From Pontiella sp. (lineage in GTDB: Bacteria; Verrucomicrobiota; Kiritimatiellia; Kiritimatiellales; Pontiellaceae): a stretch of 64,000 nt of DNA. Every line of letters starts with the position of its first letter. Positions within the stretch are counted from its first letter, which is position 1. Below, one piece after another: positions 207 to 35,054 of the stretch. A program made the translations under genes and the position numbers. The notes under the pieces were generated by a model. It searched no databases. It was not told the origin of the DNA and saw only the letters and a program-made list of their open reading frames with translations. Location: the NCBI GenBank assembly GCA_050290185.1, contig JBNKHE010000003.1, forward strand, positions 64,001 to 128,000. The letters run 5' to 3'.

Positions 207-293
207 TAAAAGCGATTAGCGAATGGCTTTTGGCATATAGTTTTTAGCCAATAGCCAATAGCCAATAGCCAATAGCCAATAGACATGAGCCAG
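207..293 (+). repeat. 7-bp periodic array upstream of four-helix-bundle gene 1, with perfect (TAGCCAA)x5 at 245-279
   Basis: Units in one register: taaaagc gattagc gaatggc ttttggc atatagt ttttagc caatagc caatagc caatagc caatagc. Confidence 0.95.
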
Positions 294-303
294 CTGATTC
301 ACA

Positions 304-669
304 ATGCGTGACTATACAAAAATTAAAGCCTGGGCCTTGGCAGACGATTTTGCTGTCGAGGTGTATCGGCGTACAGCCAGTTTCCCGTCCGACGAAAAAT
401 ATGCACTGACTTCACAGGTCCGCCGGGCTGCGTATTCTGTAGCTGCCAACTTAGCGGAGGGGGCAGGACGGAGGACAAAAAAGGATTTCGTTCGCTTTCT
501 TGATATGGCGCTGGGGTCGGCCAATGAGGCGACATACTTTATTCATTTATCCCACCGGCTCGCATATCTTGATTCTGGCTCGTTTACTGTTTTAAGGGAT
601 CAGGCCGCATCGGTTAGCAGATGCTTGTCATCCTATATTCGAGCTGTTGAGAAAGATGTTAACCAATAA
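304..669 (+). CDS. Four-helix-bundle protein (TIGR02436 / 23S-rRNA-IVP / Avd-like family)
   Basis: 121 aa with family motifs FPSDEKYALTSQVRRAAYSVAANLAEG, F-x-RFL-x-MALGS-x-x-E. Confidence 0.92.
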   Translation: MRDYTKIKAWALADDFAVEVYRRTASFPSDEKYALTSQVRRAAYSVAANLAEGAGRRTKKDFVRFLDMALGSANEATYFIHLSHRLAYLDSGSFTVLRDQAASVSRCLSSYIRAVEKDVNQ

Positions 670-775
670 CTATTAACTAATAGCTCATAGCCTTTAGCCC
701 GAAGCTAATAGCCACCAGCTAACAGCCATCAGCTAATTACCACCAGCTAACATCTAACAGCCACCGGCCCATAGT
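664..775 (+). repeat. 16-unit degenerate heptamer array (consensus about TAACAGC/TAATAGC) beginning in the stop codon of four-helix-bundle gene 1
   Basis: caataac tattaac taatagc tcatagc ctttagc ccgaagc taatagc caccagc taacagc catcagc taattac caccagc taacatc taacagc caccggc ccatagt. Confidence 0.93.
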
Positions 776-10296: not shown

Positions 10297-11208
10297 ATGA
10301 AATTTTGGATTGTTACTCCCAGTTATAACCAACTGGAATGGCTTAAGTTGTGTGTCGCTTCCGTGGCCGATCAGGCGTCGGAAGATCGAGAGGGTGGAGC
10401 AGGGTGTATCGAGGTGCATCACCATATTCAGGACGCCCTGTCATCAGATGGCACTCCGGAATGGTTGGCAGAGCATGTTGCCCAAAAACCACCAACCATG
10501 AACTATCAATTGACCTTTGTTAGCGAAGCTGACGGAGGCATGTACGATGCTATCAACCGGGGTTGGAAGTGCGCACCGGAGGGGGTGGATGTGATTGCAC
10601 ATTTGAACTGCGATGAGCAGTATCTGCCTGGTGCTTTGCAAACCATCGCAACGTTCATGTCGAAGCATACCAAGGCAGATGTGGTGCTGGCCGATATGAT
10701 TGTGACCGATCGTGATGGGATGTATATATGCCATCGTCGTAGCCTTAAACCGTATCCGATCGTTTCAAAATATACCTGTGCGGGCTTCACTGCCGCCACC
10801 TTTCAGCGATCTTCGGTAACGAAATCCAAAAGAGTGTTTTTTGATACATCTTGGAAAAATGTTGGGGACATGGTTTGGTATAATTCATTACATAGCACTA
10901 ATTGTAGCTTTCGAGTCTGCAACGAAGTTGTCTCCCTGTTTACGGATACCGGAGATAACTTAAATTGGACGGATGACGGAGCTCGAGAGAAACAGCGGTA
11001 TATGAATGCTTTTCTAAGAGGAAGTCCCTTTGGGAGTATAGCCTTTTCAAAGCTGAATGGGTTTCGACGGTGGCTTAAGGAATTTTATACCCATGCGCCA
11101 TCCAGTTATTCAATATATGTTCAGGGAGTGGGCGAACGAGTATATAGAGAGATACTCCATCCTACAGGCCTATGGCATAAAAAACGAGCTAAGCTGGGTT
11201 CCGAATAG
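10297..11208 (+). CDS. Glycosyltransferase family 2 (paralog of 15942-17051)
   Basis: IVTPSYNQ, QDALSSDGT, GMYDAINRG, LNCDEQYLPG. Confidence 0.9.
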   Translation: MKFWIVTPSYNQLEWLKLCVASVADQASEDREGGAGCIEVHHHIQDALSSDGTPEWLAEHVAQKPPTMNYQLTFVSEADGGMYDAINRGWKCAPEGVDVIAHLNCDEQYLPGALQTIATFMSKHTKADVVLADMIVTDRDGMYICHRRSLKPYPIVSKYTCAGFTAATFQRSSVTKSKRVFFDTSWKNVGDMVWYNSLHSTNCSFRVCNEVVSLFTDTGDNLNWTDDGAREKQRYMNAFLRGSPFGSIAFSKLNGFRRWLKEFYTHAPSSYSIYVQGVGERVYREILHPTGLWHKKRAKLGSE

Positions 11209-11300
11209 AATTCCAAGATTGTTGAGACGGAATGGAAGATATGGTTTTAGTTTCCCCAGTAGAATGCTTTATGTGGGATTTTCTGTAACGAGATATAAGC

Positions 11301-11993
11301 ATGAAAGAAAAGAATATCGAGTTGGGCTGCTTTTTCCCTCCTTACAATAGAAGAACCTGTTGTCCTCCTGGGAGGTTGAGGCCTCAACAGGAGAACTACA
11401 GACCCAATATTATCGTTGCGTCATTTCCGAGATCCGGAACCCATCTTTTAATAGATTTAATCCTTAATAATTTTAAGCCGTACAGGAGGAGTCCACTAAT
11501 CGTGGATGTTGATCATTTTATTAATGACAAGGACCGTGTCATGCGTGTGTTGGAATGCGGTGGTTATGTGTTAAAGACCCATTTTCCTGTGAATCCCGAC
11601 GTGGTGCTTTCGGCTTCGGCACAGGACAATATGAAGTTGTTGATTGAGCGTGCGATTATCTTTCGTCCTATACGCGACAAGCATTCAGTATTGAAGTCGG
11701 CGGGTAAAATGTGGCCGTCTCTCAAAGAAACCGAGATCTTAGGTCTTATGGATTCCTTTCAGTTGTTTTGGGAATCGCATAATACAATTGACTTTAAGTT
11801 CATCGACATTACGGGAAATTATTCAAGTGTTGTGGCCCGGATATCGCGATATCTTGGCATTCCAGCACCGAAGAGAATTACTGGTCCATATAGCAAGGAC
11901 AGAGTGTATTTCATCTTGCTAACAAAGCTCCTTACCCGTGTGTTAGGGCGCTTTTCTCCTCTTATAAACACAACTATCGGCTTTGGGAAATAG
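11301..11993 (+). CDS. Sulfotransferase-like protein
   Basis: IIVASFPRSGTHLL (5'-PSB), LKTH; start uncertain. Confidence 0.7.
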   Translation: MKEKNIELGCFFPPYNRRTCCPPGRLRPQQENYRPNIIVASFPRSGTHLLIDLILNNFKPYRRSPLIVDVDHFINDKDRVMRVLECGGYVLKTHFPVNPDVVLSASAQDNMKLLIERAIIFRPIRDKHSVLKSAGKMWPSLKETEILGLMDSFQLFWESHNTIDFKFIDITGNYSSVVARISRYLGIPAPKRITGPYSKDRVYFILLTKLLTRVLGRFSPLINTTIGFGK

Positions 11994-12008
11994 TCTGGAA
12001 TTTGTCCT

Positions 12009-13319
12009 GTGAAAATCATTCAGGCTCACAACTATTACCTGCATGCTGGTGGCGAGGATGCGGTGGTTGCCGCGGAGCGGCAAATGCTTGAGATTCAAGG
12101 GAATATCGTTGTTCCTTACTATAAGAGTAATGAAGATATTGCGGCTTCTAGCAATAAGCTAATAGCTGTTGGCCAACTGCTAAAGGCTTCCCTTAGGACT
12201 ATCTGGAACCACCAGACGTACCGAGAGTTTCAGAAGCTACTTCAAAGTGAAAAGCCGGATGTGGTGCATTGCCACAACACCTTTCCGCTGATCTCTCCGT
12301 CGATCTACTGGGCCTGCGCGAAGGAAAAAGTTCCCGTTGTCCAAACTCTCCACAACTATAGACTCTTGTGCTTAAACGCTTTTTTGTTTCGAACCACGAA
12401 GAGTCACGAAAATAAGAACCTCTGCGACTCTGCGGCTTTGAGCGAGAATAAATCTGGTATATGCGAATTGTGCGTTAATAAATCCTTCAAGTGGCCCGGT
12501 ATCCGGTATCGCTGTTATCGCGGATCGTTGCCGGGGTCGCTCGTCGTTACGCTGATGCTTTTTGTCCACAAGCTGCGGGGAACTTGGACCAAAAAGGTAA
12601 CGGCCTACATTGCCCTGACCGAGTTTCAAAAACGGAAAATGGTGGAAGAGGGACTTCCGGGGGATAAAATTTTGGTGAAATCCAACTTCATCGACGATTC
12701 ATCGATGAAAGAGCCATTAGCCTCCAATGACTCTGTGCCCTCTGTGGTGGATAAACCGTACTGCATATTTGTGGGAAGGTTGAGCCCTGAAAAGGGGTGC
12801 GATGTACTGCTAAAAGCGTGGGCGCGTTTCGGGGAAATGCCAATAGCTAACGATCATCAGCCCCAGCTGCTTATCGCTGGAGACGGTCCCGAACGCGAAT
12901 CTCTCGAAAAGCTGTCTGCCGACCTCTGTCTGACGACCTCTGTCACATTTCTCGGCAAACAGTCAAAGGGAAGTGTACTTTCTTTAATGCGCAACGCGCA
13001 GTTTCTCGCGCTTCCCTCCGTTTGGTACGAAGGGTTTCCAATGACGATTGTGGAAGCATTTTCGTGCGGAACGCCTGTTGTTGCCTCCAATGACGGAGGA
13101 ATGCTGGATGTGATTGACGAAGGAAAAACCGGTTTGCTTTTTTCCATGGGCGATGTAAATGCGCTGGCGAACACGCTCCTATGGGCGTTTGAACATCTCG
13201 AAGAGATGGCATCAATGAGTGCTGCCGCTCACAAGGATTTTAGCGAGAAGTTTTCGTCGGACATCAACTATGGAGAGCTCATAGGGATCTATGAACGGGC
13301 GTTGGGCATCAGGTGTTAG
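12009..13319 (+). CDS. Glycosyltransferase family 4 with repeat-derived insertions
   Basis: HNYY..GGED, HCHNTFPLISPS, FVGRLSPEKG, PSVWYEGFPMTIVEAF. Confidence 0.92.
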   Translation: MKIIQAHNYYLHAGGEDAVVAAERQMLEIQGNIVVPYYKSNEDIAASSNKLIAVGQLLKASLRTIWNHQTYREFQKLLQSEKPDVVHCHNTFPLISPSIYWACAKEKVPVVQTLHNYRLLCLNAFLFRTTKSHENKNLCDSAALSENKSGICELCVNKSFKWPGIRYRCYRGSLPGSLVVTLMLFVHKLRGTWTKKVTAYIALTEFQKRKMVEEGLPGDKILVKSNFIDDSSMKEPLASNDSVPSVVDKPYCIFVGRLSPEKGCDVLLKAWARFGEMPIANDHQPQLLIAGDGPERESLEKLSADLCLTTSVTFLGKQSKGSVLSLMRNAQFLALPSVWYEGFPMTIVEAFSCGTPVVASNDGGMLDVIDEGKTGLLFSMGDVNALANTLLWAFEHLEEMASMSAAAHKDFSEKFSSDINYGELIGIYERALGIRC

Positions 13320-13329
13320 GATTTCGGTC

Positions 13330-15753
13330 ATGACTGTACTTTTCTTGTATATCATCACATTGTGCTCATTCACCTTCTATGGCGTGGTGGGCGAGGACAA
13401 GACATGGTTGCTGGCGCCTTTGTTTCTTTTCAGCTATGCGGCAATTACGATTGCCTTGCTGAAAAGAGCATCCTCCTTCGCTCAAGCTTCAGCGGACAGA
13501 TTTGGCATGGGGCATGGCAATGAGAAGCTAAGAGCTAATAGCCAACAGCCAACAGCCGGAGCATTGCTTATCCTTTTTCTCCTATGGGGAATAGCAATGA
13601 TCCCCCAGGCAACGGTGCCTTTCGAGTCAAAGCTGGTGATGCTGTTCATCGGCGGGGTGGTGGGGGCTTATCTCGTATGGGGCGGGGAACTGACGACGTT
13701 CAAGGACAACCGGCTTCTGTTGGGCTTCCTGATCTTTGTCGTGATGGGACTGGCGCTGTATGGCCTGATCATCTATTTCCGTTGCCCGGACAGGATCCTA
13801 TGGACGGAACGGTATGCCGACTATCCCGGTCGCTTGGCGTCGACCTATATCTGCCCGAATCACTTTGCCCATTTGATGCAGATGCTGATGCCGTTCTGCG
13901 CGGCGTTGCTGTTCATTCCCCAGACGGGCATCTTTCTGCGCCTGCTGGCGGGATATAGTTTGCTGGTGTTTCTTCCGCCCTTGTTCCTGACCGAATCGCG
14001 CGCAGGGTGGCTGGGTTCGATTGTCGGGGTGGGGGTCGTAGCCTGCCTGATGGCGCTGCGCCGCAGCAAAAAGTTGTTCCTGCTCCTGGTGATCTTCGTC
14101 CCGTTGTGTTCAACGCTCATCCTGTTCGCGGGATGGCGGTTTTCCGAAACCTTCCACCGCCGGGTCACACCGGTCGTGGAATTCCTGAAGTATCAGGGTG
14201 AAGAGGGCGTTGGCAGCGAGTCGAAGGATTTCCGGCCGCAGACCTGGATGGATACGATCGATATGGTCAAGGAGGCCCCGCTGATCGGTTTCGGACCGGG
14301 GAACTACCGGTATACTTTTCCAGAGCACCGCAATCGCTTCAAAGGACGCCAGGTTGTTACCGGCCACCCGCACAATGAATATCTGGAACTGATCGCGGAT
14401 TATGGGCTGATTGGATTTGCCCTGTTTGCCCTGGCCTGGATCTATGGTTTGATCCGGATCCTGATTGCGTCGTTGAAGTCGGAGGAAGTGCGCCATGCCT
14501 TCATCGGCTTTGCCTTTGTCGGCACCGCCGCTGGAACGATGGTCCACTCCTTCTTCGACTTCGAGATGCATGTGTATCCCAACGCGCTTGTTTTCGCGTT
14601 GCTGGCCGCCTTGGCCTGGGGACCGTTGGCCGCGCAGAAGGCAAAAGGCGTCAGGCGTCGGGCCCGGGACTCCAGAGACCATGAACCGCAAACGGCCAAC
14701 TCCAAACTTCACGCTGCATTTTCACACAGAGATAGCAGAGATAACGGAGGGCAGAAGTCAGCAGCCAGCTCCGAACTGTTGGTTCAAAATGATTCCCCAA
14801 CAATCAGCAACGTTCAACGTTCAACATTTAACGTGCAGCGTTTAGCAACATGGCTCCTTGCCATCGGCTACCTGTCGTTAACCGTTCTCTGTCTTCAGAC
14901 CATGTCGTCCGCCTTCATCCGTGCTATGGCGGATAAGAAGGTGGAGACATTGGTCACTCGCCATGCACCCAGCTCCAAGCTCCATGCACAGCATCTTTAC
15001 GAGCTGTCAGCTCGGATAGATGCTGCGAACTGGCGGGCGTACAAGGGGATGGCGGATTTACTCTCTAATCAGCGTTACTATTCGCTCGATATGGAGGAGA
15101 AGGTCCAGCTGGCCGAGGAGGAGCGTGGTTGGTACGAGAAGACCTATGTGCAGAATCCGAAGGATCCGGAGCTCATCTCTGCCTACGGAAAATGTCTCAT
15201 TTTTCTCGGAAATGCCGAGAGCATGGGACATAGGGCAGGGAGTCGGGTGGAAGAAATATCACGCAGCGATAGCGGAGACAGCGGAGAGGATAATGCAAAA
15301 CAAACGCTCTCTGTTAACGCTGTGCGAGATAATGATTCATTTACACCTGCAGAACTAATCGATCATGGACTGGAGCTGCTCCGCGAAGCGTGCAGCTACC
15401 GCCCATTCAACGATGTCTACTGGTGGACGCTGGGCGTGGAGTTGCGTAAGCTGGGTCGCTACGAAGAAGCGTTGGACGTATTTAAAAAGGCGCAGTCGAT
15501 CCGCCGTACGCCAACGACGGTCGCCAATATAAAGTGGATCGAGAAGCAGATAGCCCTTCGGCTTCACTCAGGGCAGGCAGGGGACGGGAGAAAGGACGCA
15601 GGAGCCAGGGAGCAGGAATCTGAGCCGGCAGAAAGGGAACCTCAAACCGCAAACCCCAAACCGCAAACCTCAACGAACTTCGTCCTCCCCGACCCGACCA
15701 ACGCAGCGGCTGATCCGGGGTTGATGAAGCTGCTTGACCAAATGGAAGAATAG
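13330..15753 (+). CDS. O-antigen ligase (WaaL/Wzy_C) family protein with C-terminal TPR-like region; several repeat-derived insertions
   Basis: TYICPNHFA, LTESRAGWLG, GFGPGNY, HPHNEYLELIADYGLIG, VHSFFDF; helical repeats at C-terminus; start uncertain. Confidence 0.85.
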   Translation: MTVLFLYIITLCSFTFYGVVGEDKTWLLAPLFLFSYAAITIALLKRASSFAQASADRFGMGHGNEKLRANSQQPTAGALLILFLLWGIAMIPQATVPFESKLVMLFIGGVVGAYLVWGGELTTFKDNRLLLGFLIFVVMGLALYGLIIYFRCPDRILWTERYADYPGRLASTYICPNHFAHLMQMLMPFCAALLFIPQTGIFLRLLAGYSLLVFLPPLFLTESRAGWLGSIVGVGVVACLMALRRSKKLFLLLVIFVPLCSTLILFAGWRFSETFHRRVTPVVEFLKYQGEEGVGSESKDFRPQTWMDTIDMVKEAPLIGFGPGNYRYTFPEHRNRFKGRQVVTGHPHNEYLELIADYGLIGFALFALAWIYGLIRILIASLKSEEVRHAFIGFAFVGTAAGTMVHSFFDFEMHVYPNALVFALLAALAWGPLAAQKAKGVRRRARDSRDHEPQTANSKLHAAFSHRDSRDNGGQKSAASSELLVQNDSPTISNVQRSTFNVQRLATWLLAIGYLSLTVLCLQTMSSAFIRAMADKKVETLVTRHAPSSKLHAQHLYELSARIDAANWRAYKGMADLLSNQRYYSLDMEEKVQLAEEERGWYEKTYVQNPKDPELISAYGKCLIFLGNAESMGHRAGSRVEEISRSDSGDSGEDNAKQTLSVNAVRDNDSFTPAELIDHGLELLREACSYRPFNDVYWWTLGVELRKLGRYEEALDVFKKAQSIRRTPTTVANIKWIEKQIALRLHSGQAGDGRKDAGAREQESEPAEREPQTANPKPQTSTNFVLPDPTNAAADPGLMKLLDQMEE

Positions 15754-15941
15754 GAAGCTTACCTCAGATCTTGCAGAACAACGTAGATAAGATCTCCCGC
15801 GGAGATAGCGGCTTCCGGCTCATGGAGGCTACACCCTAGAGGGAGCAAGCAACGACCTTTAAAGCGATACTAAGTACCATGTTTTTACTACCTCTTATCT
15901 TCATCGCTGACTCCGTTGACTTTGTGTGATATTTATCCGAA

Positions 15942-17051
15942 ATGTTAATGCACTTTACCATAATCACCCCATCCTTCAACCAGCTCGGCTATCTCAAACG
16001 GTGTGTGGCTTCAGTCGCTGATCAAGTGACTGAAAGCATGGAACATGGAGCGGGGCGCATAGAGGTGTGCCACCATGTTCAGGACGGTGGTTCGACGGAT
16101 GGTGCCCGCGAATGGCTGGAGTGTTATGCGAACGAAGTCCGCGAGCAAAATACAGAGGACACAGGACAGAGGACGGAGGACTGCTCCCCTAATGCCGAAT
16201 GTCTAGCGCCTGGTGCCTACACTTTCACGTATGCAAGTGCACCGGATAACGGGATGTATGATGCGATCAACAAAGGTGTGGCCTTTGCGTTAAATCGGTC
16301 TACGACCTCGTTGAATTCGTTAAAGCAGGCTTCGCCTTCGTTAAATCCGTGCCCGAACGATTTCAACGTCTTGAACCTTCAACATTCAACGAAACCTCGC
16401 GACAGCGTGATCGCCTGGCTGAACTGCGACGAACAGTATCTGCCAGGAACCCTGCATAAGGTGGCGGTTTTTTTTGAGCAGCATCCGGAGGTGGATATTG
16501 TGTTCGGTGGCATGCTGATGGTGGATGAGGCTGGAAAGCTGCTGGCTTGCCGCAAGGCCATGCCGATGCGGCGGTTGTTCCTTGAGGCGTCTTATTTATA
16601 TAACTATTCCTGTGCGATGTTTTTTCGTCGATCGGCGTGGGAGAAGTTGGGCGGATTCGATTCAGCCTATCGCAATGCCGGGGATGAAGAGCTGGTGCGA
16701 CGAGCGATGAAGCTGGGGATGAAGACTGCTGTAGTGGATGGTTATCTTTCGGTCTTTACCTATGCAGGGCACAACCTAAGTTCGGAGGGGACGTCCGCCG
16801 TTCAGGAGCATGAGCGACTGAAACAATCAGAATCCCGGGCAAGCCGGTGGCTCCGTTTACCGATCAATCTGGCCCGGCTGGCGGAAAAGTGGATGCGCGG
16901 AGGACTACATGAGCGCGGGGCTTTAGTCTTTGAAATCTACACGGACCCATTGGAAGCGCGCTCCCTTTTTGAAGAGGATAACCCAAGTTGCCACTGGCCT
17001 GGTGAGGTGAAGCCGTATCTGCTCAATCATAGATTGAGCGATAGGCGTTAG
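15942..17051 (+). CDS. Glycosyltransferase family 2 with repeat-derived insertions
   Basis: IITPSFNQ, QDGGSTDG, GMYDAINKG, WLNCDEQYLPG. Confidence 0.9.
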   Translation: MLMHFTIITPSFNQLGYLKRCVASVADQVTESMEHGAGRIEVCHHVQDGGSTDGAREWLECYANEVREQNTEDTGQRTEDCSPNAECLAPGAYTFTYASAPDNGMYDAINKGVAFALNRSTTSLNSLKQASPSLNPCPNDFNVLNLQHSTKPRDSVIAWLNCDEQYLPGTLHKVAVFFEQHPEVDIVFGGMLMVDEAGKLLACRKAMPMRRLFLEASYLYNYSCAMFFRRSAWEKLGGFDSAYRNAGDEELVRRAMKLGMKTAVVDGYLSVFTYAGHNLSSEGTSAVQEHERLKQSESRASRWLRLPINLARLAEKWMRGGLHERGALVFEIYTDPLEARSLFEEDNPSCHWPGEVKPYLLNHRLSDRR

Positions 17052-17067
17052 GTATAGGTGTTGGGTC
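17034..17067 (+). repeat. G/T-rich degenerate heptamers (TTAGGTA/TTGGGT) upstream of four-helix-bundle gene 2
   Basis: ttgagcg ataggcg ttaggta taggtg ttgggtc; approximately the reverse complement of the downstream CCCAATA/CCTAA units. Confidence 0.65.
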
Positions 17068-17128
17068 GCGGATGACAGATGGAAAACGTTGAGTCTTTAG
17101 AGTGATATTATCTTGAGCGGGATTTGTG

Positions 17129-17500
17129 ATGGGCGAGCAAGGTTTTAGGCAACTGCGTGTTTGGCAGGAGGCAAAGGCATTGGCTGTCGACGTATACTTG
17201 TTAATCCGAAAATCACTTGCCCTGGACAAGGATTGGGGCCTGAAGGATCAGATGCAGCGGTCTGCCGTATCTATTCCTTCCAATATCGCCGAGGGTGATG
17301 CCCGAAAATCCAACAAGGATTCTATTCGCTTCTTTCACATTGCTTTGGGATCTGCAGCAGAGCTAGCTACTCAGTTGGAGATAGCACTTGAACTTGGGTT
17401 CATCGATGAACTGCCATGCCATGGAATCATTAATCGACTAGATCAGTTGTCGAAAAGCCTTGGCGCTCTCGTCAAGGGGCGGCAACAGCCCAATACCTAA
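17129..17500 (+). CDS. Four-helix-bundle protein (TIGR02436 / Avd-like), second paralog
   Basis: FRQLRVWQEAK, DWGLKDQMQRSAVSIPSNIAEG, RFFHIALGSAAELATQL. Confidence 0.93.
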   Translation: MGEQGFRQLRVWQEAKALAVDVYLLIRKSLALDKDWGLKDQMQRSAVSIPSNIAEGDARKSNKDSIRFFHIALGSAAELATQLEIALELGFIDELPCHGIINRLDQLSKSLGALVKGRQQPNT

Positions 17501-17595
17501 AACCTACATATAATGTCAAAATCCAAACACCGAGCACCTCTTAATACCCAATACACTATGCCTGTATCCCAATACCCAATACCCAATACCCAATG
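17489..17595 (+). repeat. CCCAATA-family heptamer arrays starting at the end of four-helix-bundle gene 2; (CCCAATA)x3+CCCAATG at 17568-17595
   Basis: cccaata cctaaaa ccta; taataccc aatac; cccaata cccaata cccaata cccaatg. Confidence 0.9.
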
Positions 17596-18826
17596 TCCGA
17601 CGCGACACCGTCGCGTGGCTATCGATCTGGTTCCGATTCGTGTCGGCGAGGGCGGGACGGGGAGTGGGATCTGGACCTACGCCCGCGAGCTGCTCCTTGC
17701 GATGGATCGGTCGGAGGTCCATGAACTGGAAATCCTTGCGCTGGTCAATGAAGGCCAAGTGCCGTTTTTGTCGGATTTGAAACATATTCGGTTGGTGCGC
17801 TTTCGCGGGGGAGGAAAGAGCATCATCCGGCGATTGTTTTGGGTCCATCTGCAACTGCCGCTCCATTGCTTGTTCAGACGGGTGGATGTGCTCCATAAAC
17901 TGGCGACCGATACGCCGCTGTTTTGTCACTCCAAACGGGTGACCACCATCCACGATTTTTATTACGAGTTCTTGATGGAGCAGCGATCCAGGGAAAGCAT
18001 CCGGCTCTACGAACGTGTGGAGAGCGCTTATTTTTCGATGGTGACAAAAGCCTGCTTCAAGAAATCAAACGCCATTATTACCGTATCGAACGCCACCCGG
18101 GAAGAAGCGGTTCGACGCTATCCCGGTTCCAAAGATCGCATTGCCGTGATTCATCATGGGGCGCCGTACTTGCAGCCGATAGCCGATAGCCGACAGCCAA
18201 GAGCCAAAGAGTCATCCGCACTTCCGTCATCAACCATCAACCATCAATCATCAACGGATATTAAACGTGACGCGTTCAATATCCTCTGCGTCGCCAAGTT
18301 CATGGAACACAAGGGACAGCACCTTCTGCTCAAGGCGTTTGAGCGGTTGCTTGCAGAACACCCTGAGTGTGCGGACACGACCAGACTGACGCTCCGCGGT
18401 TTTCATAATGATTCTGACTATTACGAGGCGATTTGCCGAAAGATCAACGATAGCCGATATGCTTCGAATATTGATCTTGTGGCCTTCGATCCCAAGGACA
18501 CCATCGGGGACATATACCGTAATGCGGATCTGGTGGTTCTGCTTTCGGGTTATGAGGGATTTGGTCTGCCGGTTTTGGAGGCCCAGTCGATGGGCGTGCC
18601 CGTGTTGTGTTCCGACCTGCCGGTCTTGCGGGAGGTCGGTGGAGATGGAGCTGTATATGTAGCGAGGGACGATATAGAACGCGTGGCTAGAGCTATGCAT
18701 CGGTTTATTTTCGATGTCGATTATTATGATGCCCTGCGGAATGAAGCCTCTGGAAATATCCAGCGGTTTTCATGGAACTTAGCCGCCGAGAAGACCTTGA
18801 ATGCCTATGCAATCTGTTTCGCTTAG
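17513..18826 (+). CDS. Glycosyltransferase family 4 (mannosyltransferase-like); start uncertain (17513/17558/17615)
   Basis: VTTIHD, IITVSNAT, HKGQ, SGYEGFGLPVLEAQSMGVPV. Confidence 0.9.
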   Translation: MSKSKHRAPLNTQYTMPVSQYPIPNTQCPTRHRRVAIDLVPIRVGEGGTGSGIWTYARELLLAMDRSEVHELEILALVNEGQVPFLSDLKHIRLVRFRGGGKSIIRRLFWVHLQLPLHCLFRRVDVLHKLATDTPLFCHSKRVTTIHDFYYEFLMEQRSRESIRLYERVESAYFSMVTKACFKKSNAIITVSNATREEAVRRYPGSKDRIAVIHHGAPYLQPIADSRQPRAKESSALPSSTINHQSSTDIKRDAFNILCVAKFMEHKGQHLLLKAFERLLAEHPECADTTRLTLRGFHNDSDYYEAICRKINDSRYASNIDLVAFDPKDTIGDIYRNADLVVLLSGYEGFGLPVLEAQSMGVPVLCSDLPVLREVGGDGAVYVARDDIERVARAMHRFIFDVDYYDALRNEASGNIQRFSWNLAAEKTLNAYAICFA

Positions 18827-21161
18827 TTGGTTTATGTTCTGCCTGATCATTGCAGGGCTCCTTGTGGAACCTTCCGCAGCGGCCCGCACGGTCGGATTGG
18901 CTTCGATGCAGAATTTTGAGGATCTTCCAGTGATAGAAGAGGATGTCGATGTCTTTCAGGTTTCAAGTCATGACCGAACCGGCGCAAACGATGACGGGTT
19001 CAACGGGACTTATTCGAGCCTTTACCGGGATGAAGAGGGCGATTATGTGCTGTTCGACGAAATAGGCGCCGGATGCATTACGCGCATGTGGATGACTTTT
19101 TCGACGGCCAACCTCAATCCGACCAACCACATCCGATTCTATTTCGATGAGGATGCCGAACCGCGCATCGATGTCTCCCTTCAGGATTTCTTTCATGGGA
19201 CCACTGCTCCTTTTCTGAGTCCGCTGGTGGGGGATCGGTTGGTATCGAGTGGCGGTTATTATTGCTATCTGCCTTTCCCGTTCGCCCGTCGCTGCCGGAT
19301 CGAGATGGCGCACAAACCGTATTTCTACAACATCACCTGTCAGCGTTTTGCATCAACCAACGGCGTGGCTACCTGGACAGGGCTGGAGGAGAGTGCGGGT
19401 GTTCGCTCAATGTGGGAACACGTTGGCAGCGATCCAAAGCCGACGAACGGGAATGTTCAGGTCGATGGTATGTTATCGATTCCTGCCGGAACCACCGGCA
19501 CGGTGTTTTCCGTGCTGGGTGCCGGAGCGGTGGCTGGGCTGTTGCTGGATATCGAGCCGCACTCGGCAGAGGTGCTCACCAATGTCTGGATCGACATGGT
19601 GTGGGATGGCGAAGCAACGCCGCAGGTTTCGGCCCCGCTGGGCGAGTTTTTCGGATGTCGTTTCGGCGAGACCAATCTAACGGCACTTCCGGTTGGCATG
19701 AACACGAATACACCGTATTACTGCTGGTTTCCCATGCCGTTCTGGAGCTCCGCTCATATCGAGGTCGTGAATCATTCTTCGGTCGATATCACTAATCTGA
19801 CGTTTGAGGTCCAGTACCATAATCGGGCGTATGATGCATTGCGCACCGGTTGGTTCCATGCGGTGGCCCGCTCGAAGAATATCGTGCAGAGCGACGGAAA
19901 TGATTATGTTCTATTGGAGACCAATGGATGGGGCAAGGTGGTGGGTGTGGTGCTTTCAGTACGAAACAGGAGCACGGATCCATTGGGCTATTTGGAAGGC
20001 GATGAGCGTATCTATATTGATGGAAGCTCAACACCCCAGCTCTATGGAACGGGAACGGAGGATTTTTTCAACGGGGGATGGTACTTTAACCAGGGGCCAT
20101 TCTCTCTTCCCGTCCACGGGAACCCGATGCGTAAGCACGAGTGGAGACCGGATTGGAATGTGCCCCCCTACATCTCCAACAACTTTACCGCGGCGTATCG
20201 GTTCTTTCTTGCAGACTGCCTTTCTTTTCGCTCATCCATCCGGTTGGGGATGGAGCACGGCTATAATAATTCCCAGAAAGGAGAGTATTCCAGCGTGGTG
20301 TACTACTACCTGCTTCCATCACGCACAGGAATGGTTTTACGTACAGCACTGGATGTGGGGAATATATTCTCCGAGTCTGATGCAGACTATGTAAGCTCGG
20401 AAAGTATTCTGGTAACCAACAGCTGGCGATACGAAGGCGATGCTGACAACGATGTGGTTGTGGATGACGGTCGGATCATCTCGGATTCTTCAAGCTTTGC
20501 GGTGTCCCTATCGAGCACGAACATGGGACTGTTGATTCGCCGGCGGGCGGATGCGGTGCCTGGTCGTCAGCATGTGAAAGTATATGTGGATGAGGCGTTG
20601 GTCAGTGATTGGTATACTGCAGATTGTAATTTCACTAATTTAAACAGACGATGGTTTGATGCGGAATTGCAGATTCCGGCAGCGTACACCGCCGGAAAAA
20701 CATCGGTAACGGTCCGGTTGGAGAAGGATCTTTCATCTGCGGGACTTTGGAGTGAGTATCGATATTGGGTCTATAGTCTGGAGCCTTTGCTGCCCACAGG
20801 AGATCTGGATGCCGACGGCTTGCCGGATGAGTGGGAGATTTCATATTTCGACAATATTCTGGAGGCGGTTCCGGGGGAAGATGGCGACGGTGACGCAATG
20901 GGGAATTTGGCGGAGTATATAGCGGGAACCGATCCCTTGGATTCCGTATCGAACTTTCGCCTTCGAACCGATGCCGAAGCACTCTCTTTTCTTGCGCAAA
21001 CCGGACGGTCCTATACCCTATGGTATTCGTCTGATTTGCTTGCGGGTGAGTGGAGCGCGGCGGCGACCAACTTGCAAGGGAATGGAGTAATTGTTTTCTG
21101 GCCGTATCCCAAAAACGGAACAAACGGATTTTATCGAGCGGACGTACAGTTACAATGGTAG
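18801..21161 (+). CDS. Secreted DUF2961 / GH172-like glycoside hydrolase with C-terminal DxDGD/EYIAGTDP module
   Basis: Signal peptide; SSHDRTGANDDG, GAGCITRMW, WFPMPF, YLEGDE, GTGTEDFFNGGWYF. Confidence 0.8.
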   Translation: MPMQSVSLSWFMFCLIIAGLLVEPSAAARTVGLASMQNFEDLPVIEEDVDVFQVSSHDRTGANDDGFNGTYSSLYRDEEGDYVLFDEIGAGCITRMWMTFSTANLNPTNHIRFYFDEDAEPRIDVSLQDFFHGTTAPFLSPLVGDRLVSSGGYYCYLPFPFARRCRIEMAHKPYFYNITCQRFASTNGVATWTGLEESAGVRSMWEHVGSDPKPTNGNVQVDGMLSIPAGTTGTVFSVLGAGAVAGLLLDIEPHSAEVLTNVWIDMVWDGEATPQVSAPLGEFFGCRFGETNLTALPVGMNTNTPYYCWFPMPFWSSAHIEVVNHSSVDITNLTFEVQYHNRAYDALRTGWFHAVARSKNIVQSDGNDYVLLETNGWGKVVGVVLSVRNRSTDPLGYLEGDERIYIDGSSTPQLYGTGTEDFFNGGWYFNQGPFSLPVHGNPMRKHEWRPDWNVPPYISNNFTAAYRFFLADCLSFRSSIRLGMEHGYNNSQKGEYSSVVYYYLLPSRTGMVLRTALDVGNIFSESDADYVSSESILVTNSWRYEGDADNDVVVDDGRIISDSSSFAVSLSSTNMGLLIRRRADAVPGRQHVKVYVDEALVSDWYTADCNFTNLNRRWFDAELQIPAAYTAGKTSVTVRLEKDLSSAGLWSEYRYWVYSLEPLLPTGDLDADGLPDEWEISYFDNILEAVPGEDGDGDAMGNLAEYIAGTDPLDSVSNFRLRTDAEALSFLAQTGRSYTLWYSSDLLAGEWSAAATNLQGNGVIVFWPYPKNGTNGFYRADVQLQW

Positions 21162-21231
21162 CGAGCTTGAATATTCGATTGGGTGTACGTTGATAATAGA
21201 TGGCTTGGCACCGTATTTTCTGGAGTGGTCA

Positions 21232-23706
21232 ATGGGTACTTTTTTAATCAAATGGGGAAAATGGTTTACACCGGTCCTGGGATGCATTGCGGTCTTCCTG
21301 CTGCTGCACTACCTGCAAAAGATGGGGGGCTACCAATTGCCCGCGTGGATAGTGGGTACAATGGGCGCGGTGAGTGGAATTACCCTGCTCGGGTATCTAC
21401 TGCAACTACATGTATTGAACCGGATCGGGGGGGTGTTTCTTCTGGTAGTGGCCGTGGTATGTTTGGTGGGTATGTTGCTGCCGGCCGAAACCATAGGCGA
21501 ATATCCGCACAAAGCATCCGCAGTGGTTGCCCATGATTTCGACGCAGCCTGGAAAACGGTCTATGGCCATGACCTATTCAAGGAGTTCAGCCTGCACCGG
21601 AACCTGATGCAGTATGCCAAGAGCTTGTCCAGTTTCGATATTCACCGGGCGGGTCAGATGGGGCTGTTCGGTATTTTTGGCCTTGCGATGGGAATCTGCT
21701 TTCTCTTTCCCATAGACCCCTCCTCCCTCCGATGGCGCTATTCCAGTCGGGTTCTACTGCTGTGTGTTGCGGGAGCGCTATGGTCCTTGCTGCTGGAACT
21801 GTTGCAGACGCTATCACCAACGCGTGAAGTCTCTTTTGGGGGTTTTCTTGAGAGCACAATCGGGGTCTTCGCGGGGACGCTGCTGTTTGCTCTATGCAAC
21901 ACGGTCTATGTCTCTCGAAAAAGGATGCTTGAGGATCGGCGCTTCAACGTGCTCGGCGTAGGTATTGATGCCGTGGATATGGAGGACTGTCTTCAATTAT
22001 TTCAGGAGATCATCGGCCAACAGGCACTAGGCAATGGGCATAAGGCATTAGGAGAGAGGGCTAACAGCCAAGAGCCAAGAGCTGACAGCTCATACTACTA
22101 TCCCTCACAGGAGGAAACCGGGGGGTTGGATCTCGGAAGCGCGGCGCAGACTCCTAAATCGGAAATCGGAAATCGGAAATCGGAAATTATTCTATCTTCC
22201 GGTCTCAAAACCCGACTGCCGGCCATGACCACTGCGATGGGCGTGGCGGGGATCGTGGAGTCGCGCCGCAACCAGAAGCTCCAGCGCATCCTGAACGAAT
22301 CGGTGTTGAACACGCCTGACGGCATGCCGTTGGTCTGGTTGGGCAAATTGTTCGGCTATCGAAATGTCGAGCGCGTATATGGTCCCGATCTGCTGCGAGA
22401 TGCCTGTGCCTATGGGGTAGATAAAGGATGGCGGCACTATTTCTGGGGGGCTGCGCCGGGGATTGTCGAGAAACTAAAAGTAGTGCTGGAAGAGAAACAT
22501 CCCCTGATCCAGATTTCAGGGATCTGCTGTCCACCGTTTCGTCCGTTGACTCAGGAGGAAGAGGATGCGCTGGTGGAGGAAGTGAATTCAGCCGATACCG
22601 ATATTTTCTGGATCGGGATCAGCACGCCGAAGCAACTTTATTTCATGGATCATATCCGCGATCGGCTGAACTGCAAAGTCATCTGTCCGGTGGGATATGC
22701 CTTCGATGTGAATGCCGGGGTGGAGAAGGATGCGCCGGACTGGATCAAGTATGCCGGGCTTCAATGGCTGCACCGCGGGATCAAGCAACCGCGCCTCTGG
22801 AAACGCTATCTGCCGGACAATCCCGCGTTTGTACTCAAGGTCTTTTCCCAACTGCTGCACCTGAAACGGTTTACCATGTTCGTGCATGAACGCCCGATTG
22901 CCCCCGTAACCGATGCCGAAGGGTTCCCTCGTTTTCCGGCCGGTGCAGTGGCGCTGTCGGCCATGAGCATGCGTGGAGCGCGTGATCGCGTCGCACACTG
23001 GATCGAATCGGGGAAAAAACACTACGTCAATATCTGTACGGCGGATACCGTTGTGCAGTGCTACGACCGGCCCGACCTGGCAAAGATTGTGATGAATGCC
23101 GGGATGGCTACAACCGACGGTATGCCACTGGTTTGGCTTGCCCATCATTTTGGTTACACGGATGCGACGCGGGTCTATGGGCCGGATCTCATGCTTGAGC
23201 TTTGTGCCTTGAGCGAAATGAAGGGCTATGCCCATTATTTCTACGGGGCGACTGATGAGGTGCTGGAGCAATTACGGATAAACCTGCTGGAAAAGTATCC
23301 GCAACTGAAGATTGCGGGCATGTATGCTCCGCCTTTCCGTCCGCTCACCGATGCCGAGAAGGAGGACGTGGCGGAACGGATCAATGCCGCGAAGCCGGAC
23401 ATCGTCTGGTGCGGGCTGGGAACGCCCAAGCAGGACTACTGGGTGGCGGAATTCCGCCCGCGCCTGAATGCAGCCGCCATTCTGGCCGTGGGTGCTGCCT
23501 TCAACTTTCACGCCGGGCATGTGACACAGGCCCCGCGCTGGATGATGAAGTCCGGTTTGGAATGGCTTTTCCGCCTATGCGTTGAACCGCGTCGTCTCTG
23601 GCGCCGGTACATCATTGGCAATCCTCGTTTCGTTTGCCAAACCCTAAAGCAGTGGATCCGTGCGCGCCGAATTCGGAAACGGCTTGCCGCGATCGAAACT
23701 CCATAG
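21232..23706 (+). CDS. VanZ-like membrane domain fused to two WecB/TagA/CpsF (GT26) glycosyltransferase domains
   Basis: ELLQTLSPTRE (VanZ-like); two copies of DGMPLVWL..RVYGPDL..PPFRPLT..TPKQ..PRxLWxRY. Confidence 0.88.
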   Translation: MGTFLIKWGKWFTPVLGCIAVFLLLHYLQKMGGYQLPAWIVGTMGAVSGITLLGYLLQLHVLNRIGGVFLLVVAVVCLVGMLLPAETIGEYPHKASAVVAHDFDAAWKTVYGHDLFKEFSLHRNLMQYAKSLSSFDIHRAGQMGLFGIFGLAMGICFLFPIDPSSLRWRYSSRVLLLCVAGALWSLLLELLQTLSPTREVSFGGFLESTIGVFAGTLLFALCNTVYVSRKRMLEDRRFNVLGVGIDAVDMEDCLQLFQEIIGQQALGNGHKALGERANSQEPRADSSYYYPSQEETGGLDLGSAAQTPKSEIGNRKSEIILSSGLKTRLPAMTTAMGVAGIVESRRNQKLQRILNESVLNTPDGMPLVWLGKLFGYRNVERVYGPDLLRDACAYGVDKGWRHYFWGAAPGIVEKLKVVLEEKHPLIQISGICCPPFRPLTQEEEDALVEEVNSADTDIFWIGISTPKQLYFMDHIRDRLNCKVICPVGYAFDVNAGVEKDAPDWIKYAGLQWLHRGIKQPRLWKRYLPDNPAFVLKVFSQLLHLKRFTMFVHERPIAPVTDAEGFPRFPAGAVALSAMSMRGARDRVAHWIESGKKHYVNICTADTVVQCYDRPDLAKIVMNAGMATTDGMPLVWLAHHFGYTDATRVYGPDLMLELCALSEMKGYAHYFYGATDEVLEQLRINLLEKYPQLKIAGMYAPPFRPLTDAEKEDVAERINAAKPDIVWCGLGTPKQDYWVAEFRPRLNAAAILAVGAAFNFHAGHVTQAPRWMMKSGLEWLFRLCVEPRRLWRRYIIGNPRFVCQTLKQWIRARRIRKRLAAIETP
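22156..22187 (+). repeat. Perfect (AAATCGG)x4+AAAT tract inside the GT26 gene
   Basis: Direct reading; encodes KSEIGNRKSEI. Confidence 0.95.
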
Positions 23707-24048
23707 CCCGCAGATGGTCGCAGAAGATCGCGGATACACTTTACACGGTCTCCGATTCTGAGGTAAGAGCCATCAGGCTCAGACTCGTACGGGAATCAAC
23801 GAAGCTGCCGGAGGGAAACCTTCCTTGATTCATCAACCTCTGATTGCTCGGCTAGCTCGGCGTGACCAAACCGATGGAATGGACATTATCACACAGAGAT
23901 AGCGGAGATAACGGAGGTTTGTTACTGCCCGTCTCTACTTGCTCCGTTCGCTCTGCTTGTGTATAGGCTGTTGCCGACTCGCCCTGAAATGCAGTATTTC
24001 AGGGCTTTTTTGTTTACATCTCCTCAGCGGACCAACTAGCGTTTAGAT

Positions 24049-25845
24049 GTGCCAGTTCGCCGTTCCATATTAGTCCCGGTCTTGACCGCCATGCTGTTGT
24101 TTGTCGTGTATTCGTTCACGGCTCCGCAGAACCATAGCGAAGCTGAGGATGTTTACGATTTTGCGCTGAAGGTGGAGCAGGGGCATTTTGCAGATCAGGC
24201 CGGCGTGAACCGCGTGCTGGCGCTCCCTGCATTGGGGGTGGCGTACAGGGCCGCACAGTTGTTGGGATATGATGGCCGTGCCTTTCCATTCATGATCATC
24301 ATCAACCGTTTCCTCGCCGTAGTCTGTGTGTTTCTGTTCTACCACCTGCTCACTCTGGCGTACCGCAGGCATCCTGCCTTCCCTGGATCCGCTTCCCTTT
24401 CGCCTAATACCTTCCCAAACCATCAACCATCAACCAGCAACCAACAACTAGTAACCGCTCTTCTGTTGGCCTTCTCCTACGGCTTCTGGCGCTACGCCAA
24501 CGAAGCGGAAACCTACATCCTGGCAAGTGTTCTAGTGCTTGGAGCCTGGTGTCTGGCCATTGGCCAGCAATCAGCAATCAGCGACCGGCAGTCAGCAAAA
24601 GACAACGGTTCTCCGACTTCCTCCCTCCCTCCGGAACGTAGGCTCCTCCGGGCCGGAGGCCGTCCTTGGTTTACCCTCCTCTGTCCTCTGGTTTCCGCTT
24701 TCGGCATTCTGGTGCATCTACTGAACCTGGTGCCGCTGCTGTTGATCATACCCCTGTACTATCTGTTTTCCGGGAAATGGAAGAACGCAGTGTTTCATGG
24801 CCTGATGACAGGGGGGCTGGTCGGATTGGGCTACGGACTCTGCTTCCACATGCTGGATTGGGGCAATCTGGGCGCACATGATCAACCGTTGGAAGCCGGC
24901 TTCAGCCTTTCGAATGTGCTGCGCGGGGGTATCGCCTCCGGCCAATGCCTGGTATCGGGCAACTTCCTGTTCGGGTTCGAGTCGTTTCGTGATGCCCTGA
25001 TCAACCTGTTCCCTTCGCGCATGCTGGGGGAAGAGTTTTACATGGCGTCGCACATGCCTGACTGGATCAAATGGGCGGGGTGCGTGACGATCACAGCGTT
25101 TTCGGTTTGCAGTTTGTGGTTTGCGTTTAAGTGCTGGCAGAGCCAAAAGGCATGTTGGAGCAGTAGCGAAATGCAGTCTTCTGCTAACTTCAAAACGAAA
25201 AATTCAAACATACGGCCATTAACCATTTCATCCGCCATCTGGTTGCTCCTGTATGCTCTAGCCGTGATCCACACGGAGGCGGGTAGCCCGGAATTATGGA
25301 TCATGGCATTGATTCCCTTTTGGCTTATCGTCGCTCCGCTCCAACAAAGAGCATGGGGCATGGGGCATGGAGGAAGCACAATCGCTATGGATAGAACGGG
25401 CAGGATTTGCTCTTGGGGATTGGTCCTTGCACTTTTTTTACATAATCTGGTAGCGGGGTTGCTCCCCGTTATGTCAAACGCGTCCGACTATCATGTGGCC
25501 AAGGGAAAATGGCTGGTGGAGCACTGTGGCCCGCAGGATCTGATATTGACCGACTACGAGCCGGTAATGGTTTTTTACCTGGACTATTATGTAGCCGGCG
25601 ATGTGGTCAGCAGTGGGGCCATGAATGCGCCGGATATCGAGCGAAAGCTTGGAACGCGAACGGGAAACGCGTACGCTTTGGCTTCTTTTTTCCGGCCCAT
25701 GGAATCGATGCGGGTGCGCAACCCGAAGCAATATGCTCGAATGGTGGCGACCGGAGAAGCGCTGCAATCCGGGTTTGTAAAAATTGAAGACGATGAATTT
25801 GGTGGCGTGTGGGAGTTTAAGGAGCAGTTGAATATTGATAAATGA
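24049..25845 (+). CDS. Polytopic membrane protein, possibly GT-C-fold glycosyltransferase-like, with repeat-derived insertions
   Basis: Many TM segments; acidic EAEDVY after TM1; FSYGFWRYANEAETY. Confidence 0.6.
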   Translation: MPVRRSILVPVLTAMLLFVVYSFTAPQNHSEAEDVYDFALKVEQGHFADQAGVNRVLALPALGVAYRAAQLLGYDGRAFPFMIIINRFLAVVCVFLFYHLLTLAYRRHPAFPGSASLSPNTFPNHQPSTSNQQLVTALLLAFSYGFWRYANEAETYILASVLVLGAWCLAIGQQSAISDRQSAKDNGSPTSSLPPERRLLRAGGRPWFTLLCPLVSAFGILVHLLNLVPLLLIIPLYYLFSGKWKNAVFHGLMTGGLVGLGYGLCFHMLDWGNLGAHDQPLEAGFSLSNVLRGGIASGQCLVSGNFLFGFESFRDALINLFPSRMLGEEFYMASHMPDWIKWAGCVTITAFSVCSLWFAFKCWQSQKACWSSSEMQSSANFKTKNSNIRPLTISSAIWLLLYALAVIHTEAGSPELWIMALIPFWLIVAPLQQRAWGMGHGGSTIAMDRTGRICSWGLVLALFLHNLVAGLLPVMSNASDYHVAKGKWLVEHCGPQDLILTDYEPVMVFYLDYYVAGDVVSSGAMNAPDIERKLGTRTGNAYALASFFRPMESMRVRNPKQYARMVATGEALQSGFVKIEDDEFGGVWEFKEQLNIDK

Positions 25846-25929
25846 TGATTGATGGGTTTTGCCGGGAATCGCTATTCCGAACAACAATCATTCAACAATT
25901 TAGCAACAAATTGAGCGGAGCGAAAGAAT

Positions 25930-26928
25930 ATGGGTAAGATGCTGGTCACAGGGGGGTGCGGTTTCGTGGGCCGCCATTTGATCGATCGACTGCTAACGGC
26001 CGGTCACGAAGTCCATTGCGTGGATATCATGGAGCCATTGAGCGGGGCGATTGCACCTGAAGCATGGCCGCTGTTCCGTCCGCTGGATTATGCCAACTTC
26101 CACTATTATGCCGAAGATTGCCGCGATTGGTTCAAGCGGATGCAGGCTTCGGAGTTTGACTATGCCTTCCATCTGGCCGCTATGGTGGGCGGCCGCGCCA
26201 TGATCGAAAACAATCCACTCGCCGTGGCCGACGATCTTTCCATCGATGCCGAATACTGGCAATGGGCCGTTAAGGCCAAGCCGGGCAAATCGATTGTCTT
26301 CAGTTCGAGCGCAGCCTATCCGATCCATCTGCAGCGTCCGGATCACTACATGTTGCTGAAGGAGGACATGATTTCCTTCGATGAAGGCCTGGGGATGCCT
26401 GATATGACCTATGGCTGGGCGAAGCTGACCCATGAATACTGTGCGCGGCTCGCCTATGAAAAGCATGGTCTCAAGTCCGTGACCTATCGGCCGTTTTCGG
26501 GATACGGCGAAGATCAGGACGATACCTATCCGTTCCCCAGTATCTGCAAGCGCGTACTGGCGAACCGCGGGGCCAGTGAAATCGGGGTCTGGGGCAGCGG
26601 GCGACAGATGCGCGACTTTATCCATATCGATGATTGCATAGAGGGCGTATTGCGCACCATGGATCAGATTGATGATGGATCCGCGATCAACCTTTCCACG
26701 GGCATCTTCACCAGCTTCATCGAGTTCGTACAGCTCGCTGCGGATATTCTTGGATTCCAACCCGAGGTCAAGGGAACATCCAATACCCCGGAGGGCGTAT
26801 TTGCGCGGGGAGGGGATACCGCCTTCCAGCAGCAACTCGGTTTCCGCTATTCGCGCTCCTTCCGCGACGGCATCCACCGTGCCTTGGATTATTTTCAGAT
26901 GACCTCCGTGCAGGATATGAAGAAATAG
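25930..26928 (+). CDS. NAD-dependent nucleotide-sugar epimerase/dehydratase
   Basis: TGGCGFVG, FHLAA, SSSAAY, YGWAK, VWGSGRQMRDFIHIDD. Confidence 0.92.
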   Translation: MGKMLVTGGCGFVGRHLIDRLLTAGHEVHCVDIMEPLSGAIAPEAWPLFRPLDYANFHYYAEDCRDWFKRMQASEFDYAFHLAAMVGGRAMIENNPLAVADDLSIDAEYWQWAVKAKPGKSIVFSSSAAYPIHLQRPDHYMLLKEDMISFDEGLGMPDMTYGWAKLTHEYCARLAYEKHGLKSVTYRPFSGYGEDQDDTYPFPSICKRVLANRGASEIGVWGSGRQMRDFIHIDDCIEGVLRTMDQIDDGSAINLSTGIFTSFIEFVQLAADILGFQPEVKGTSNTPEGVFARGGDTAFQQQLGFRYSRSFRDGIHRALDYFQMTSVQDMKK

Positions 26929-26964
26929 AACTAGTAAAACATACTAGTAGTACGTATTTTATGG

Positions 26965-34979: not shown

Positions 34980-35054
34980 TGGAGCGAGCGAAGAGATTCG
35001 AACTCTCGACATTCACCTTGGCAAGGTGAAGCTCTACCACTGAGCTACGCTCGC
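34980..35054 (-). tRNA. tRNA-Gly (GCC)
   Basis: GCGAGCGTAGCTCAGTGGTAGAGCTTCACCTTGCCAAGGTGAATGTCGAGAGTTCGAATCTCTTCGCTCGCTCCA; cloverleaf with encoded CCA. Confidence 0.97.

Follow-up and report, generated by a model that had tools for sequence, protein, structure and literature searches.

Heptamer arrays in genes of a Kiritimatiellales bacterium: frame and stop filtering, turnover and probable translation

Short arrays of 7-base units are present as dispersed copies in the genes of a marine bacterium of the order Kiritimatiellales and of its relatives, where they lie in loops, preserve the reading frame and lack in-frame stop codons, and where they have been gained, swapped and lost repeatedly at fixed sites. 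Judging from comparisons of orthologous genes, the arrays are very probably translated rather than cut out of the RNA. As an overall explanation, we give a probability of roughly 0.7 to the view that dispersed heptamer arms, filtered by frame, stop codons and location, are translated as near-neutral filler. The window, i.e., the whole 64-kb stretch of DNA that was analysed (G000:C3:64001-128000, where G000 is the label of the window's genome), carries a polysaccharide locus in its first 28 kb, and a glycosyltransferase gene of this locus is the principal example discussed below.

Heptamer arrays in the polysaccharide locus and the genome

The GT4 glycosyltransferase gene (17558..18826, + strand; 422 aa, P0001) belongs to a frame that is open from 17513, and it is located directly 3' of a four-helix-bundle gene (17126-17500). 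Its intragenic block consists of two arrays. The first is of the AGCYRAY type, with about five units (18173..18207, + strand), and is read QPIADSRQPRAK; in the frame of the ORF 17513-18826 the codons are CAG CCG ATA GCC GAT AGC CGA CAG CCA AGA GCC, exactly as the first-pass annotation had stated, with CAG at the in-frame junctions and two TAG triplets out of frame, at 18180 (frame +1) and 18187 (frame +2). The second is of the CATCAAC type, with four units (TCATCAA/CCATCAA; 18227..18254, + strand), and is read SSTINHQSS; this unit type recurs in rmlB and at 24418. The block had been placed in the interdomain linker of the GT-B fold, and this is where it lies (18152..18277, + strand; 42 aa, from HHG to the residue before NILC), between the Pfam domains Glyco_transf_4 (aa 51-216) and Glycos_transf_1 (aa 246-412). 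In the AlphaFold model, residues 201-240 form a coil with a pLDDT of 48-77, against values mostly above 90 elsewhere (mean 90.8).

This linker is a hotspot of insertion. Among 120 homologs taken from a protein database, and hence intact by construction, it is 18-21 aa long in 81 and 24-83 aa long in 28, and just one other internal insertion of at least 6 aa was found outside it. The linker is open in all 14 of the close homologs compared at the DNA level, six of which (two of them nearly identical) carry arrays of several families there. A further array of the gene, of the CCCAATA type (17568..17594, + strand), is the C-rich arm behind the four-helix-bundle gene and is read in frame as the N-terminus of the GT4 protein; there is no in-frame ATG between it and the conserved start of the GT4 fold.

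Other genes of the locus carry comparable arrays, all on the + strand. In an O-antigen-ligase-like gene (13291-15753), a GCATGGG-type array is followed in frame by an AGCYAAY-type array (13506..13557), the two arms not being complementary; the array at 13525 has AAG and CAG at its in-frame junctions and a TAG out of frame at 13539, in agreement with the first description. An AGCY array inside the Glycos_transf_1 domain of another GT4 gene (12837..12862, gene 12009-13319) does keep its TAG at 12844 out of frame, yet it is degenerate; other inserts occur near this position in two orthologs. In the WecG-family gene (21091-23706), a G-rich arm and an AGCY arm (22022..22090) are followed by an AAATCGG array (22156..22187), all in frame, and the G-rich arm is similar to the insert in bioD of G000; the in-frame junction of the array at 22059 is GAG, as had been noted, but this array has no TAG in any frame and is therefore uninformative about TAG. 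In-frame arrays are also located at 14808-14846, 15638-15673 and 16152-16181 (the first and last bracketed by homology), and four lie in a membrane-protein gene (24049-25845) at 24418, 24565, 25098 and 25351 (span 24418..25370). The one at 25098-25128, in G-rich orientation, codes for the hydrophobic peptide AFSVCSLWFAF and has a weak partner 88 nt downstream.

The 7-bp periodicity itself is a real feature of the genome, as had been proposed: 53 period-7 segments reach a score of at least 11, versus 2-4 for periods 5, 8, 10, 11 and 13, and at a second setting the numbers are 95 versus 9-16 for neighbouring periods. These arrays are dispersed and lie near stop and start codons, with a high share within ORFs, and 37 kb of the polysaccharide locus hold 21 of the 95. 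In none of 83 genes that contain or adjoin arrays did a Pfam search (8 genes without a match; arrays between opposite-strand genes and four that are probably chance occurrences left out) show a domain split by an array. On another contig (C10; L237:6730-13497), a 2255-aa RHS protein with SpvB-like and FG-GAP domains has an in-frame heptamer array at about residues 1834-1866. The sole Rfam match in the window is a tRNA gene (34983-35054, - strand); the same search gave no rRNA match there.

Frame and stop codons at homology-bracketed sites

It had been argued that intragenic arrays avoid stop codons only in the reading frame. The pattern is seen, but the argument as made is circular, because an ORF by definition has no in-frame stop, and the count from the four arrays used is weak: TAG occupies 0/6 junctions in frame versus 4/11 out of frame (Fisher, p 0.24 two-sided, 0.14 one-sided). 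Extended to all AGCY arrays of G000 and of the loci fetched, the count becomes 0/12 in frame versus 5/25 out of frame, still at p 0.15. In a class-wide pattern search this family turned up in 16 of 251 genomes, a number too small for a test on the family alone to be strong, and the reversed-pattern control of this search itself matches other heptamer arrays and is no clean null. The reversed pattern has 26-151 matches in G155, G217, G136, G082 and G118, which suggests that these genomes are very rich in heptamers.

In a non-circular test, each flank of a site is located by its own six-frame search before the DNA in between is read. The bioD gene (TIGR00347) was found in 49 of 53 genomes, and both anchors were present in 45 of the 47 loci fetched. 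Seventeen of these 45 loci are expanded, with 69-123 nt (11 different lengths) versus 30-42 nt, and every one of the 45 segments has a length divisible by three and is free of in-frame stops; of the two loci not counted, L317 has an open insert followed by an N gap. For rmlB (TIGR01181; 33 of 38 matches fetched), site 1 is expanded in 15/33 loci and site 2 in 7/33, all of them open. For the two genes together, 111 of 111 segments are multiples of three without an in-frame stop, and all 39 expanded segments, which form 27 sequence clusters, are open where about 7 would be expected by chance.

A wider screen found 251 arrays in G000 and 169 relative loci without the use of ORF information, and 84 of these could be bracketed by homology. 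Seventy-six are open and none of the eight others is at a real break: two are in L317, where the gap lies downstream of the open insert, three are intergenic arms at four-helix-bundle cassettes, one is an opposite-strand bracket inside an open bioD, and two are GC-rich self-matches in L199 (L156 and L191 were left out of later counts as GC-rich look-alikes). Stop triplets in the 76 arrays number 0/23/30 by frame, and stop slots of the consensus units are kept in 0/10 cases in frame versus 20/30 out of frame (p 4e-4); the genomes are related, so that such counts overstate independence and the p values are overstated as well, and the direction is uniform. 

Across 45 loci of a fused mnmL-mnmC2 gene, four sites account for 33 expansions, most of which belong to repeat types other than heptamers; stops number 0/37/31 by frame, and the one break among 553 anchor pairs is away from arrays. 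In hemN, 30 of 30 loops are 48-66 nt long and multiples of three; clear arrays of several families are present in 13 of the 30 and take up much of the loop, so that their removal would leave loops below every observed length, which argues against excision. The loci of rmlB, hemN and mnmL-mnmC2 were mostly the best-scoring ones, which favours intact genes, while for bioD most of the remainder was fetched too. Frameshifts away from any array were seen in L331 (rmlB of G054) and L425 (mnmL-mnmC2 of G013), and may be assembly errors. Non-heptamer repeats, which we take to be 9-10-base units and REP-like palindromes, are found in frame in the same permissive loops (mnmL-mnmC2 loci L389-L433; GT4 homologs P0007, P0013 and P0015) and also in the window at 12391-12440 and 15254-15293/15895-15934; the intragenic stretch 15254-15293 and the intergenic stretch 15895-15934 are 75% complementary.

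That intragenic arrays appear to be translated, as first proposed, gains indirect support from the homology-bracketed inserts, all of which are in frame, stop-free and confined to loops. The accompanying case against RNA-level removal also stands, on the frame and stop filter, the loop confinement and the hemN lengths.

Nucleotide pattern, cassettes and turnover

The proposal that selection retains the nucleotide pattern of the arrays was not borne out. Departures from the repeat unit are spread evenly over the codon positions (p 0.82), with no third-position bias, and synonymous deviations are slightly enriched (0.31 vs 0.245, p 0.04). Many orthologous loops have decayed arrays or none, and TAG at AGCY junctions is scarcer out of frame in genes (5/25) than in intergenic or gene-edge arrays (33/65; p 0.009). 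Because the deviations are even over codon positions and the synonymous excess is slight, the insert peptides look nearly neutral and nearly unconstrained. Recent arrival or re-copying accounts for the kept out-of-frame stops without selection at the nucleotide level. An orientation chosen for hydrophilic peptides was considered and rejected as a mere tendency (58/76 arrays, and 16/23 where the other strand is stop-free); many of the exceptions are paired arms of hairpins.

The GT4 block does not fold: a hairpin at 18160-18270 is unsupported (z +1.1), there is no inverted partner within 3 kb, and an inverted-repeat scan of 11000-27000 gave none for the block among the 25 longest pairs. The single arms in hemN and rmlB have inverted partners at background level (hemN, 7.9 in the own genome vs 7.8 in other genomes). 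Among the bioD inserts, 8/17 fold with z <= -2.5 via different but complementary arms, which is more than neutral filler would call for.

Heptamer arms also frame genes. The four-helix-bundle gene upstream of GT4 (PF05635/TIGR02436, like PDB 2gsc; 17126..17500, + strand) has its stop codon in a C-rich heptamer arm at about 17488-17510, and the G-rich arm of this cassette (17039..17067, + strand) supplies the TAG stop (17049-17051) of the upstream GT2 gene; it pairs with the CCCAATA arm in the predicted fold, the whole region having a non-significant z of -0.9. A second cassette (245..763, + strand; gene 304-669) is framed by AGCYAAY arrays, the upstream, intergenic one retaining TAG at every junction. 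These flanking arrays have the same orientation, unlike the usual inverted arms, and their AGCT-centred units are partly self-complementary. Both cassettes (17039-17594 and 245-763) thus have a PF05635 ORF between heptamer arms; the GT4 intragenic block has no ORF. Throughout G000, stop-bearing G-rich arms come after stop codons or provide them, and C-rich arms lie ahead of the following start. These C-rich arms are often in an open frame continuous with the next gene, core genes included (C1:48971, C1:216275, C5:11978, C4:91946, C11:41916 and others); they may be translated N-terminal extensions, or the starts may be mis-called.

Intragenic unit types frame four-helix-bundle genes across the genus as well. 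Such genes are present in 44 of 53 genomes, and the arms of 11/30 cassettes pair at z <= -3; the pairing in bioD inserts and cassettes is explained equally well by selection and by arrival as a ready-made hairpin. Genomes with a bioD insert have 1.72 four-helix-bundle genes per Mb versus 1.05 in those without (p 0.008, with kin not independent), and G046 has a bioD insert and no four-helix-bundle gene; the link between inserts and these genes is a correlation only. For PF01797, the Y1 transposase of REP/RAYT systems, the genome has four matches. A reverse transcriptase was rejected as a partner, just fragments being present on two small contigs.

The arrays might be translated and yet be kept for a function as nucleic acid, as hairpins or 7-base-periodic protein sites that tune the processing of operon mRNA or its transcription, with perhaps the four-helix-bundle protein as the bound protein. 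Complementary arms of different families at one bioD site, the pairing arms of the cassettes, the positions after stop codons and before starts, and the heptamers at the RNase III site of the Coxiella intervening sequence (IVS) in the passages covered of PMC4990558 would all fit such a function; the unfolded GT4 block, the single hemN and rmlB arms without a partner beyond background, the 28/45 bioD alleles that have no insert, the differences between sisters and the decay of arrays in close relatives do not, and we regard it as improbable.

At distant loci, arms are found again as composites of about 27 nt whose variant units follow one another in the same order, which indicates that they were copied and did not arise by slippage only. 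On trees built without the inserts, the insert states require 11 changes for bioD (4 forced by well-supported branches) and 10 for hemN (7 forced). The close sisters G050 and G064 (100/100) carry different heptamer families at the same bioD codon, and the non-sisters G050 and G000 share a near-identical 96-nt insert with flank identity at background, for which reason a long horizontal transfer of bioD from G000 to G050 was rejected. A 60-nt stretch of lower identity lies beside the swapped insert (83% vs 87-100%), and no donor was found for the swapped allele. In the bioD loci L279-L293, L314 and L325, inserts of different families often share a pyrimidine-rich tail (LSVP/FSVP), and one type of G-rich arm is joined to several C-rich arms, as if the arms were exchanged separately. 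The hemN loop of G011 (L360) equals that of G000 (L359) in length and has a similar peptide and no heptamer pattern; either the array decayed in G011 or an array was written over the native loop in G000.

Independent slippage in tolerant loops, with no copying between loci, could explain why the unit types form a continuum (49 different consensus units among the 76 arrays) and why hemN arrays add few bases to their loop. As local microsatellites, however, the arrays should not share composite arms between distant loci or near-identical 96-nt inserts between non-sister genomes, nor should both arms of a complementary pair be gained in one step over the 30-nt bioD state, and this origin has little probability. 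Phase variation, in which the gain or loss of one unit would turn surface-polysaccharide genes off, is less probable again: a 7-base step does shift the frame, and 21/95 arrays lie in the polysaccharide locus, but the arrays are short and imperfect, are found also in bioD, hemN, rmlB and a tRNA-modification gene, and show no off-frame allele in any genome of this between-species comparison. Removal of the blocks from the mRNA by splicing, IVS-like excision with rejoining or ribosomal bypass is the least credible of all, for while 23S rRNA intervening sequences, which RNase III excises, have termini similar to the arms (PMC4990558, in the passages covered) and an open frame could serve as a fallback when removal is incomplete, the strict frame and stop filter, the confinement to loops, the absence of shared boundaries, of a hairpin at the GT4 block and of any Rfam match in the window besides the tRNA, the hemN loops that would become too short, and the arm read as the N-terminus of GT4, ahead of which lie the only start codons available, all oppose it.

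According to the explanation by dispersed and filtered arms, the GT4 block would consist of two copies of short heptamer arms, each with 3-5 units, from a dispersed family that comprises many unit types and is of the same kind as the arms that bracket four-helix-bundle genes and fill operon spacers in the genus. Such arms would land in coding DNA, to be replaced or lost later, presumably through short-tract recombination between arm copies and between alleles, followed by slippage. Selection would spare only those that lie in flexible loops, linkers or termini, span a multiple of three bases and bring no stop into the frame, and the survivors would be translated as near-neutral filler rich in S, Q, P, T and N; stops in the other two frames would persist since nothing removes them. 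For the copying route itself and the origin of the arms from four-helix-bundle cassettes, which we infer from these patterns, the odds seem slightly better than even.

Related systems and significance

The arrays belong to the broad class of dispersed heptamer repeats (long SSR or STRR-like), and the comparisons below refer to the passages covered of each paper. They resemble the Rickettsia RPEs (PMC10969869) and intragenic REPs (PMC3733652) as small in-frame repeats in unrelated genes that add 10-30 residues at tolerant positions. RPEs are palindromes of about 150 bp with one conserved peptide per family (PMC10969869), unlike the arms seen here, which are tandem heptamers of 25-40 nt, drawn from many unit types and often without a pairing partner, and which replace one another at a site. 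In-frame insertion relative to orthologs was thus observed as in RPEs and a conserved family sequence and peptide of that kind were not; an RPE-like hairpin is unsupported at 18160-18270 and is seen in 8/17 bioD inserts.

The TAACTGA heptamers of Beggiatoaceae, Cyanobacteria and Bacteroidetes form dispersed arrays of 2-6 units near stops and starts, and it was argued that stop codons govern their site and orientation in ORFs (MacGregor 2015, PMC4679880). Within ORFs, those repeats mostly keep to the periphery and to the orientation that is free of stops, whereas here arrays lie inside domains, and stop-bearing units are kept with the in-frame unit alone changed; a term search of the text covered of that paper found no mention of four-helix-bundle genes. 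The four-heptamer elements of Geobacter metallireducens have one GC-rich unit and were read as regulatory, and frame effects are absent from the passages covered (PMC2700814). In Xanthomonas and Nostoc, G-rich heptamers of about four units lie near stops and starts and are mostly transcribed, 7-11% of those in Xanthomonas overlapping ORFs; they have a single quadruplex-forming unit, whereas most families here lack G-tracts (PMC4692102). The P6b element of the Nostoc trnL intron is similar in that hairpins of two 7-base classes (I and II) swap repeatedly at a fixed site and off the phylogeny, but it is structural RNA, in contrast to coding loops with a frame filter, many classes and often a single arm (PMC4476775). 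The Coxiella 23S rRNA IVS with its S23p/PF05635 ORF shares the four-helix-bundle gene, heptamer repeats and inverted ends (PMC4990558); here, however, cassettes lie at stop/start junctions of operons and in a window with no 23S rRNA, arms without a gene lie in ORFs, and no excision is evident.

In a literature search mostly confined to papers outside subscription, none was found that unites four-helix-bundle genes, heptamer arms and in-frame turnover at hotspots. Bauer et al. 1993 reportedly described an in-frame heptamer run in Anabaena nifJ, Elhai et al. are said to have treated small repeats that are dispersed in Nostoc, and the work of Rouhiainen et al. 1995 is said to be relevant too; these works may weaken the novelty further. 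Intragenic translated repeats are already known, and translation is the expected outcome once properly tested. What is added is a measured filter, with in-frame stops purged and others kept, and turnover in single-copy core genes, where unrelated heptamer families swap at one codon between sister genomes. In bioD, hemN, rmlB and the GT4 linker there are now defined sites at which the abundance of heptamers and the role of the four-helix-bundle protein can be addressed. It should also be mentioned, as a caution for annotation, that low-complexity peptides of this sort in proteins of the Kiritimatiellae are repeat-derived.

A bolder and rather doubtful reading is that these observations reflect a minimal mobile system not described so far, whose PF05635 protein, or else a partner of it, would recognise the 7-base periodicity instead of a sequence and would repeatedly write or swap arms at the same tolerant codons. 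If this were true, the long-unexplained excess of heptamers in bacteria would be tied to one protein family, and the arms would be a steady source of new loop sequence, by which the loops of BioD, HemN and RmlB are rewritten between sister genomes.
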